Assembly (NCBI RefSeq): GCF_001677475.2
Contig: NZ_CP015229.1
Origin: Escherichia coli
GTDB taxonomy: Bacteria; Pseudomonadota; Gammaproteobacteria; Enterobacterales; Enterobacteriaceae
Length of the DNA: 64,000 nucleotides
Direction: 5' to 3' (one strand)
Part shown: positions 49,653 to 51,566 of the stretch, piece after piece
How positions within the stretch are numbered: the first letter of the stretch is position 1
Layout: each line of letters starts with the position of its first letter
Position numbers and translations under genes: made by a program
The notes under the pieces: model-generated
Database searches by the model: none
The model's input: only the letters and a program-made list of their open reading frames with translations
Told to the model about the DNA's origin: nothing

Positions 49653-51566
49653 ATGATTGTTTTCTCCTCGTTACAAATTCGTCGCGGCGTGCGCGTCCTG
49701 CTGGATAATGCCACCGCCACCATCAACCCCGGGCAGAAAGTCGGCCTGGTGGGTAAAAACGGCTGTGGTAAATCTACCCTGCTGGCATTGCTGAAAAATG
49801 AAATCAGCGCCGACGGCGGCAGCTACACCTTTCCGGGAAGCTGGCAACTGGCGTGGGTGAATCAGGAAACGCCGGCGTTACCGCAAGCGGCGCTGGAATA
49901 TGTCATTGACGGCGACCGTGAATATCGTCAACTGGAAGCGCAGCTGCACGACGCCAACGAACGTAACGACGGGCACGCCATTGCGACCATTCATGGCAAG
50001 CTGGATGCTATTGACGCATGGAGTATTCGCTCCCGTGCCGCCAGCCTGCTGCACGGCCTCGGTTTCAGCAATGAACAACTGGAGCGCCCGGTAAGTGATT
50101 TCTCCGGTGGCTGGCGTATGCGTCTTAACCTTGCCCAGGCGCTAATTTGCCGTTCAGACTTGCTGCTGCTCGACGAACCGACTAACCACCTCGATCTCGA
50201 TGCCGTTATCTGGCTGGAAAAATGGCTGAAGAGCTATCAGGGCACGCTGATCCTGATCTCTCACGACCGCGACTTCCTCGATCCGATCGTCGATAAAATT
50301 ATTCATATCGAACAACAAAGCATGTTCGAGTACACCGGCAACTACAGTTCGTTTGAAGTACAGCGCGCCACCCGTCTGGCGCAGCAACAAGCGATGTATG
50401 AAAGCCAGCAGGAACGCGTGGCACATCTGCAAAGTTATATCGATCGTTTCCGTGCCAAAGCCACCAAAGCGAAGCAGGCCCAGAGCCGCATTAAGATGCT
50501 GGAGCGTATGGAGCTGATTGCCCCCGCGCACGTCGACAATCCGTTCCGCTTTAGCTTCCGCGCGCCGGAAAGCCTGCCAAATCCGTTACTGAAGATGGAA
50601 AAGGTCAGCGCAGGCTATGGCGATCGCATTATTCTCGACTCGATTAAACTAAATCTGGTCCCCGGCTCGCGCATTGGTCTGCTAGGCCGCAACGGTGCGG
50701 GTAAATCGACATTAATCAAACTGTTAGCCGGTGAACTTGCGCCAGTCAGCGGTGAAATTGGTCTGGCGAAAGGGATCAAGCTCGGCTACTTCGCCCAGCA
50801 TCAACTGGAATACCTGCGCGCCGACGAATCGCCTATTCAACATCTGGCACGTTTAGCGCCGCAGGAGCTGGAGCAAAAACTGCGTGATTACCTCGGCGGC
50901 TTTGGTTTCCAGGGCGATAAAGTAACCGAAGAAACGCGCCGCTTTTCCGGTGGGGAAAAAGCCCGCCTGGTGCTGGCATTAATTGTCTGGCAGCGTCCGA
51001 ATCTGCTGCTGCTCGACGAACCGACTAACCACCTTGACCTCGACATGCGTCAGGCACTCACCGAAGCATTAATCGAGTTCGAAGGCGCGCTGGTTGTCGT
51101 CTCGCACGACCGTCATTTGCTGCGTTCCACCACTGACGATCTCTACCTGGTTCACGATCGTAAAGTCGAACCGTTCGACGGCGATCTGGAAGATTATCAA
51201 CAGTGGTTGAGCGACGTACAAAAGCAGGAAAACCAGACCGACGAAGCGCCAAAAGAGAACGCAAACAGCGCCCAGGCACGTAAAGATCAGAAGCGTCGGG
51301 AAGCGGAGCTGCGTGCGCAAACCCAACCGCTGCGTAAAGAGATCGCCCGTCTGGAAAAAGAGATGGAAAAGCTGAACGCACAGCTGGCGCAGGCGGAAGA
51401 GAAACTCGGCGACAGCGAACTGTATGACCAGAGCCGTAAAGCGGAGTTGACCGCCTGCCTGCAACAGCAAGCCAGCGCCAAATCCGGCCTGGAAGAGTGC
51501 GAAATGGCATGGCTGGAAGCCCAGGAGCAGCTTGAGCAGATGCTGCTGGAAGGCCAAAGCAACTGA
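49653..51566 (+). CDS. yheS: ABC-F family ATPase YheS (two tandem ABC cassettes, no membrane domain)
   Basis: 637-aa ORF with two Walker A (GKNGCGKST, GRNGAGKST), two signature and two Walker B motifs, and a charged coiled-coil C-terminus. Confidence 0.93.
   Translation: MIVFSSLQIRRGVRVLLDNATATINPGQKVGLVGKNGCGKSTLLALLKNEISADGGSYTFPGSWQLAWVNQETPALPQAALEYVIDGDREYRQLEAQLHDANERNDGHAIATIHGKLDAIDAWSIRSRAASLLHGLGFSNEQLERPVSDFSGGWRMRLNLAQALICRSDLLLLDEPTNHLDLDAVIWLEKWLKSYQGTLILISHDRDFLDPIVDKIIHIEQQSMFEYTGNYSSFEVQRATRLAQQQAMYESQQERVAHLQSYIDRFRAKATKAKQAQSRIKMLERMELIAPAHVDNPFRFSFRAPESLPNPLLKMEKVSAGYGDRIILDSIKLNLVPGSRIGLLGRNGAGKSTLIKLLAGELAPVSGEIGLAKGIKLGYFAQHQLEYLRADESPIQHLARLAPQELEQKLRDYLGGFGFQGDKVTEETRRFSGGEKARLVLALIVWQRPNLLLLDEPTNHLDLDMRQALTEALIEFEGALVVVSHDRHLLRSTTDDLYLVHDRKVEPFDGDLEDYQQWLSDVQKQENQTDEAPKENANSAQARKDQKRREAELRAQTQPLRKEIARLEKEMEKLNAQLAQAEEKLGDSELYDQSRKAELTACLQQQASAKSGLEECEMAWLEAQEQLEQMLLEGQSN

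Follow-up and report, generated by a model that had tools for sequence, protein, structure and literature searches.

A 31-nucleotide repeat shared by the two Walker B regions of Escherichia coli yheS: probable origin in constraint, codon preference and drift, and an 843-bp deletion allele in public assemblies

YheS (b3352) is one of the four ABC-F translation factors of Escherichia coli, together with EttA, Uup and YbiT. Duplicated bacterial genes, for example tufA and tufB, can undergo concerted evolution by gene conversion. RecA-independent deletions occur between direct repeats shorter than 200 bp that lie within a few kb of each other, with an exponential fall-off with distance, according to passages of PMC7145654. 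This study concerns a perfect 31-nucleotide (nt) direct repeat, TGCTGCTGCTCGACGAACCGACTAACCACCT, in the yheS gene of a 64,000-nt stretch of E. coli DNA (contig NZ_CP015229.1; hereafter the window), one copy of which lies in the Walker B region of each of the two ABC cassettes. We consider it probable that this repeat arose from protein constraint, codon preference and drift, and that it then served as a substrate for short-homology deletion. Neither the repeat at the DNA level nor a deletion allele of yheS is mentioned in the published passages on ABC-F proteins consulted here, those of PMC11162784 among them.

The features concerned are located in the window as follows (N copy and C copy denote repeat copies 1 and 2, respectively).

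49653..51566, + strand: yheS coding sequence, 637 amino acids (aa) plus stop; two-cassette ABC-F ATPase with linker and C-terminal extension
50160..50201, + strand: 14 codons for LLLLDEPTNHLDLD in cassette 1, residues 170-183; peptide invariant in 77 orthologues
50161..50191, + strand: repeat copy 1, Walker B region of cassette 1; E175 codon GAA at 50175-50177
50192..51034 (equivalently 50161-51003), + strand: 843-bp interval lost in the deletion allele, which fuses residues 1-180 to 462-637 (356 aa)
51003..51044, + strand: 14 codons for LLLLDEPTNHLDLD in cassette 2, residues 451-464; peptide invariant in 77 orthologues
51004..51034, + strand: repeat copy 2, Walker B region of cassette 2; E456 codon GAA at 51018-51020
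51024..51026, + strand: Thr458 codon of the C copy, ACT here; its third base (51026) sets the run at 31 or 22 nt

A sequence-only reading of this DNA had reported a perfect 31-nt repeat, 843 bp apart, in Walker B of each cassette, and both copies were found at the positions that it gave: the 31-mer occurs at exactly two sites in the window, 50161-50191 and 51004-51034, on the + strand. No third site was detected in the window with up to three mismatches tolerated (dinucleotide shuffles expect 0), and this was the sole perfect direct repeat of at least 26 nt within the 64 kb. Near-identity of the copies reaches 40 nt at 95%, with 2 mismatches (50161-50200 versus 51004-51043). The spacing of 843 nt corresponds to 281 codons and the codon phase of both copies is identical: the first and last letters of the 31-mer are both second codon bases, of Leu170/Leu451 and Leu180/Leu461, respectively, with nine whole codons, LLLDEPTNH, in between. 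The peptide common to both cassettes comprises 14 residues (LLLLDEPTNHLDLD) and includes E175 and E456, which are named as the catalytic residues of the YheS cassettes in passages of PMC11162784.

The open reading frame (ORF) in the window is a member of the YheS subfamily of ABC-F ATPases, and agrees with the known YheS in protein, domains, and synteny. No residue differed from K-12 YheS, and Pfam models matched ABC_tran twice (E = 2e-50), ABC_tran_Xtn at residues 217-299 (E = 2e-29), and ABC_tran_CTD. The score against NCBIfam PRK10636 (YheS equivalog) was 1407 bits versus a cutoff of 917, whereas the other ABC-F models remained below cutoff: Uup, EttA, and PRK15064 scored 361 (cutoff 900), 337 (599), and 364 (762), respectively. 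The gene order kefG-yheS-yheT was kept among the ORFs of the window, in the K-12 annotation, and in 5425 annotated E. coli genomes. DNA identity of the yheS gene was 97.9% to K-12 and 92.4% to E. albertii. As a separate observation, the nearest complete E. coli genome was at most 98.6% identical to yheS of the window, despite the K-12-identical protein; Shigella or a lineage with few sequenced members may be the source of the window.

In the account that we favor, both YheS cassettes keep a single 14-residue Walker B/D-loop peptide, and the two E. coli copies happen to spell this peptide nearly alike, with mostly locally favored codons: CTG for Leu, CTC for the Leu preceding Asp, GAC, GAA, CCG, AAC, and CAC. 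Such favored codons would also be the reason that the same spelling turns up in ettA and in some uup alleles. The last step to the perfect 31-mer would have been a single synonymous change of Thr from ACC to ACT in the C-terminal copy. The resulting identity of 31 bp at a distance of 843 bp would then permit short-homology deletion, whether RecA-independent (template switching or slippage) or through a minimal exchange that depends on RecA.

To assess constraint and codon preference, species-representative genomes were scanned once for orthologues; the 80 yheS loci obtained range from Escherichia to Vibrio, Aeromonas, and Psychromonas, and 77 of the genes were usable. In 77/77 orthologues, both cassettes encoded [D/N]LLLLDEPTNHLDLD[A/M], with codon spelling that varied freely. 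Clear preferences were nevertheless seen at several positions across species: AAC (94%), CAC (82%), GAA (~80%), and, for the Leu before the Walker B Asp, CTY, i.e., CTC or CTT (~75%). The CTC in the motif looks odd but is explained by a genome-wide context effect: among Leu codons preceding Asp, CTC accounts for 28% (10% elsewhere) and CTC/CTT together for 45% (20% elsewhere), based on ~64,000 codons. CTY was found at the last hydrophobic Walker B position, when this is Leu, in 12/14 ABC cassettes of K-12. In addition, seven of the nine whole codons of the repeat are enriched in the genes for ribosomal proteins and elongation factors (EF).

The perfect repeat is young and lineage-specific. Among 5426 RefSeq complete genomes of this species, 5425 matched yheS (one had no match), and all 5425 carried a full-length yheS, with at least 80% of the gene in one place. 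A 48-mer containing the C copy with ACT was exact in 4448 of these genomes, and 602/5425 (for example, HB37 and CX08) carried ACC at the Thr of the C copy, the state of E. albertii, Klebsiella, and most Enterobacterales. In the ACC allele, the run breaks into 22 nt, one mismatch, and 8 nt. The perfect 31-mer therefore hinges on a single synonymous site, this Thr codon, which is still polymorphic in E. coli. Other strains had single-nucleotide polymorphisms (SNPs) confined to one copy: some have CCA or CTA in N, whereas O157:H7 has CTT GAT in C.

The same picture was obtained between species. The longest identical run between the N and C copies had a median of 14 nt in the 77 orthologues, which places the 31 nt of E. 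coli in the top tenth. Longer runs were found in Pluralibacter gergoviae and Serratia plymuthica (42 nt), in two Aeromonas species (38 and 34 nt), and in others, each with its own codons. On the other hand, the closest relatives lack the long run: it was at most 19 nt in E. albertii (Thr spelled ACA in N and ACC in C, plus one Leu difference) and 11 nt in Salmonella (GAC..ACC in N versus GAT..ACT in C), and the Thr codon of K. pneumoniae was ACT in N and ACC in C. Between E. coli and E. albertii, 5/28 motif codons differed, indicating that the motif sites evolve at an ordinary synonymous rate. A further observation from this set is that the codon for the Walker B Asp (position 5 of the motif) was the site most correlated between cassettes within species, with GAC/GAC in 10 species versus 3.8 expected.

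Near-identical motif strings were found in three of the four ABC-F genes of E. coli. The N-half of K-12 ettA reads ATG CTG CTG CTC GAC GAA CCG ACC AAC CAC CTG and is identical to the yheS repeat at 30/31 positions. When the 48-mer with ACC was used as the query, the best match in most genomes was an exact stretch of 31 nt in ettA. Since ettA carries the exact ACC version of the 31-mer, the perfect partner of the C copy of yheS in ACC strains is this unlinked gene, at a distance of over 1 Mb, and no longer the N copy. This identity of ettA, equal to or better than that between the two yheS copies, indicates that such runs arise without proximity. The uup gene is dimorphic in E. coli, and a common allele contains an exact match of 28 nt to the yheS 31-mer, in its N-half Walker B. 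This match sits in a 109-nt segment (gene nt 518-626) with 14 synonymous differences from K-12, compared to 2.8% gene-wide. Ectopic conversion from yheS to uup was rejected as a source because the 14 differences go both toward and away from yheS; the alternative allele of uup is probably an imported divergent segment, and its match to yheS a coincidence.

The identity between the yheS copies is higher than the protein alone demands, by a margin that depends on the null. At the codon frequencies of the window, 5.6 codons are expected to agree between two independent spellings of the 14-residue peptide; 10 did (P of at least 10 matches, 0.016). A run of at least nine identical codons had a probability of about 0.0012-0.0015 under E. 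coli codon usage, and of 0.007 for the nine codons under the usage of ribosomal-protein and EF genes. Codon context of the next residue was rejected as a sufficient null, the probability of such a run rising only from 0.0015 to 0.0025. The excess of codon identity in the motif is, thus, real and modest to moderate (P ~0.001-0.01 depending on the null).

We then consider the deletion. With a perfect identity of 31 bp (40 bp at 95%) and a spacing of 843 bp, the yheS repeat falls within the range of repeat lengths and distances described for short-homology deletions. A junction pattern specific to the predicted deletion matched two metagenome contigs; in blastn, both joined window position 51004 onward to sequence up to 50200, with the 40-nt repeat as overlap, and one of the two contained an intact ORF for the 356-aa fusion. 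The exact 356-aa protein was found on 111 contigs in 174 index blocks, and a Shigella flexneri variant of the fusion on 8 contigs. The isolate assemblies at NCBI that bear the fusion include contigs of 100-220 kb and a 4.9-Mb chromosome record (CP057354.1). Deletion-bearing assemblies are GCA_013828815.1 (that of CP057354.1), GCA_018310975.1, GCA_018091685.1, GCA_022029215.1, GCA_006241035.1, GCA_000812345.1, GCA_000812305.1, GCA_003123055.1 and GCA_045584835.1, among others. The synteny around the fusion is normal (kefB-kefG-[fusion]-yheT-yheU-prkB), and nine fusion loci represented at least 7 flanking haplotypes, 1-161 nt apart per 7 kb; two of the loci were within 2 nt of K-12 and one had an O157-type flank. 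The assemblies, therefore, support recurrence of the deletion on several independent backgrounds; its mechanism and its reality at the level of reads are what we infer from them. The in-frame loss of 843 bp, which had been foreseen from the repeat, is accordingly represented by the exact fusion allele in public assemblies from several backgrounds, some records of which may be artefacts. That at least some of these records are real appears likely to us.

Compared to the deletions of the type studied by Lovett et al. 1994 (as cited in passages of PMC7145654), the yheS allele is alike in that one repeat copy is kept, the junction is exact, and recurrence is independent. Unlike those assays, in which the repeats were 101 bp, the yheS repeat is 31 bp and its deletion alleles are known from assemblies alone. 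From cassette 1, the predicted fusion would keep Walker A, the Q-loop, and the signature, and from cassette 2, the D-loop and H-loop; it would also keep the C-terminal extension but be devoid of residues 181-461, including the interdomain linker. Passages of PMC11162784 describe the linker helix of YheS as essential for activity, and without it the fusion has most likely lost its function, in a gene that is dispensable and poorly expressed. The same source describes yheS as generally repressed and reports that SecM-induced arrest was unaffected by deletion of the gene under the conditions tested, so that a null allele should be tolerated.

The results that weigh against our account form two sets, the first of which concerns the origin of the repeat. 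Optimal codons were no more frequent at conserved than at variable residues of yheS (46% versus 45%; Mantel-Haenszel odds ratio, 0.88), figures that also rule out, gene-wide, translational accuracy at conserved sites as the general cause. The best null, a log-linear one (species usage plus the position preferences from the 77 orthologues), still gave P ~0.01 for the E. coli run and expected 0.67 species with a run of at least 31 nt versus 7/77 observed (7.5 codon matches expected versus 8.45 observed). The excess of identity between the N and C copies was confined to codons in register (+0.069, compared to +0.004 out of register). Finally, in independent species pairs, 28 co-switches of codons in both copies were counted versus 14 anti-switches (p = 0.02); examples are the Asp at position 5 in two Photorhabdus species (GAC/GAC versus GAT/GAT) and the Leu at position 4 in Aeromonas. 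Plain drift predicts neither these counts nor the in-register excess.

The last two results would be expected from intragenic micro-gene-conversion, in which short template switches copy one Walker B segment onto the other; the C-copy change from ACC to ACT would have been templated by the N copy, and periodic homogenization would occur in many lineages. Further results in the same direction are the codon identity of the N and C motifs, 8.45/14 within species versus 7.70 between species matched for GC content at third codon positions (GC3; permutation p ~2e-4), runs of at least 31 nt in 7/77 species versus 1.5% of cross-species pairs, and the number of shared non-modal codons (126 versus 94 expected). 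Species-specific codon-pair preference was rejected as the cause of the within-species excess because the out-of-register control had almost no excess. However, when related species were collapsed (a crude correction), the difference between in and out of register was 0.056 +/- 0.028 (Wilcoxon p = 0.055), and control sites outside the motif already gave a within-species excess of 0.028, about half of the 0.056 inside. Sharing of ACT/ACT, the very state of E. coli, was not enriched in the family (4 seen versus 3.3 expected). The change in E. coli is a single base and indistinguishable from a point mutation, and the longest identity before this change, 22 nt, fell short of the 23-90 bp given for the minimal efficient processing segment (MEPS) of E. 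coli (PMC3758752). Moreover, the E. coli SNPs in one copy have no mirror in the other, and the unlinked ettA is equally or more identical. We, therefore, regard conversion as an unlikely origin of the E. coli repeat.

This assessment agrees with the extent of the identity. The codon identity of the N and C motifs was 0.55 across species, where conversion cannot act, and 0.61 within species. Outside the 14-codon motif no excess of synonymous identity was found: 24/53 sites with the same residue share the codon (45%), versus 47% in cross-species comparison. No linked multi-site transfer between the yheS copies was detected in E. coli, in which the arrangement is one base from the ancestral type. 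The sequence-only reading had suggested conversion between the cassettes and had called for a codon-level alignment of the two halves across species; the suggestion is largely refuted by its own criteria, as there is no excess outside the motif and the string of the 31-mer recurs in ettA (and over 28 nt in uup), and the comparison across the family gave a small, borderline in-register excess within the motif (p ~0.05). The yheS repeat resembles concerted evolution of the tufA/tufB type in that paralogous segments of one genome are identical at synonymous sites. Unlike that type, the identity in yheS covers only 31-40 nt of an invariant motif between flanks with ~33% protein identity, is absent in the sister species, and is matched by unlinked paralogues. 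Because constraint, codon preference, and drift appear by these comparisons to account for the repeat, gene conversion is neither required nor specifically supported for E. coli; occasional micro-conversion may occur in the wider yheS family.

Both halves of the data could also be joined in a single process, in which the Walker B segments of YheS (and perhaps other ABC-F proteins) exchange sequence by very short template switches with two outcomes: slow in-register homogenization of synonymous sites across Gammaproteobacteria, and the recurrent 843-bp deletion at ~30 bp of identity. We consider this quite improbable; if true, two-cassette ATPases would contain a recombination hotspot that reinforces itself, at the very site of an invariant catalytic motif.

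Selection on the motif itself is the other alternative for the origin. Here, the codon or mRNA string for DEPTNH would be selected for decoding accuracy or speed, codon pairs, or local mRNA structure, and each species would converge on one spelling for every cassette. AAC and CAC are retained even in AT-rich species (GC3 of 0.22-0.4), and the string is near-identical in three of the four E. coli ABC-F genes, both of which are in line with such selection. In K-12, CTY precedes the Walker B Asp in 7/7 Leu codons of ABC-F and 5/7 of other ABC cassettes, and this Asp is GAC in 7/8 ABC-F cassettes and GAT in 13/14 others (Fisher p = 3.5e-4). The latter contrast is weakened, though explained only in part, by the higher overall use of GAC in ABC-F genes, given which 7/8 has P ~0.025 by our calculation, and the former by the fact that the CTC bias before Asp is genome-wide rather than specific to the motif. 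In addition, the motif has diverged from that of E. albertii no differently from ordinary synonymous sites (5/28 codons), is polymorphic inside E. coli, and has a Thr codon that flips freely between close relatives, and no gene-wide tie of conservation to optimal codons was found. Motif-specific selection thus seems doubtful to us, and constraint, codon preference, and drift remain the preferred explanation.

The second set of contrary results concerns the deletion. The allele was present in 0/5425 complete E. coli genomes of RefSeq. Logan contigs are built in such a way that no 31-mer can occur twice (PMC12424806). In many E. coli assemblies, the repeat is the precise point at which a contig stops: 16 contigs carry an N-terminal fragment of 179 aa with the final residues ...DLLLLDEPTNH, and other YheS fragments start with the C copy or a few codons ahead of it. 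Furthermore, a 369-aa chimera of EttA (N part) and YheS (C part), joined at the 31-mer, occurred on 29 contigs with no reciprocal. This chimera (for example, HCT9300954.1) connects rob-gpmB-yjjX-trpR-slt to yheT-yheU-prkB-yhfA-crp with the ACC form of the 31-mer as the junction, and its contigs are mostly from Logan and all at most 25.6 kb. Three other ettA/yheS chimeras tested (542, 650, and 823 aa, the reciprocal among them) were absent from the collection searched. The chimera is biologically implausible and most likely a mis-join at k = 31. The 31-mer, therefore, breaks or mis-joins short-read assemblies, and together the chimera, the contig ends, and the limit of one 31-mer in Logan mean that part of the deletion records must be artefacts; those from assemblies with k = 31 or low coverage are uninformative.

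In the extreme case, all records of the 843-bp deletion would be assembly artefacts, a de Bruijn graph with k of 31 or less having skipped the loop between the repeats, and no natural allele would exist. One of the metagenome matches fits this, with a coverage of 1.5 and 15 gap openings over 3.6 kb relative to the other metagenome contig, as does the thin spread of the deletion across many lineages (K-12-like, O157-like, and S. flexneri) without marking a clade. Present-day isolate assemblers, on the other hand, finish at k well above 31. A restriction of the deletion to short, low-coverage, or k <=31 assemblies was not borne out: it is carried by isolate contigs of 100-220 kb and by CP057354.1, and contigs longer than 20 kb were present in 53/174 deletion blocks versus 2/37 chimera blocks. 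The product of the reciprocal 843-bp tandem duplication (918 aa) was absent from the protein collection, a product that short reads could not show in any case. The repeat resembles mis-assembly by k-mer collision in that its length equals the Logan k of 31, contigs break at it, and ettA is joined to yheS at it; unlike such mis-assembly, the deletion also occurs in long contigs of isolates and in a 4.9-Mb chromosome record, for which a repeat of 31 nt should make no difference. Artefact as the sole source of the records is, accordingly, a possibility to be taken seriously, and the less probable one.

Elsewhere in the window, a 900-aa ORF at 35515-38217 (- strand, at the position of chiA) contains four copies of ~207 nt with 64-71% identity at 37003-38154. 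These copies are spaced 303-333 nt apart and are probably tandem repeated domains.

The phenomenon in yheS is an ordinary one, in which a conserved motif, codon preference, and drift give a short-homology repeat. Long synonymous identity between ancient paralogous motifs is, by itself, no evidence of gene conversion. The repeat matters more in practice than in biology: its length is the k used by the largest public collection of assemblies, and public protein databases thus contain "ABC domain-containing" proteins of 356 aa and EttA::YheS chimeras of 369 aa, spurious or real, which should not be taken as new single-cassette ABC-F families unless checked at the level of reads. The smaller, biological point is that drift can turn an invariant motif of a protein with an internal duplication into a repeat long enough to delete the sequence between its copies, the outcome here being a recurrent, in-frame, and probably null allele of a dispensable translation factor.

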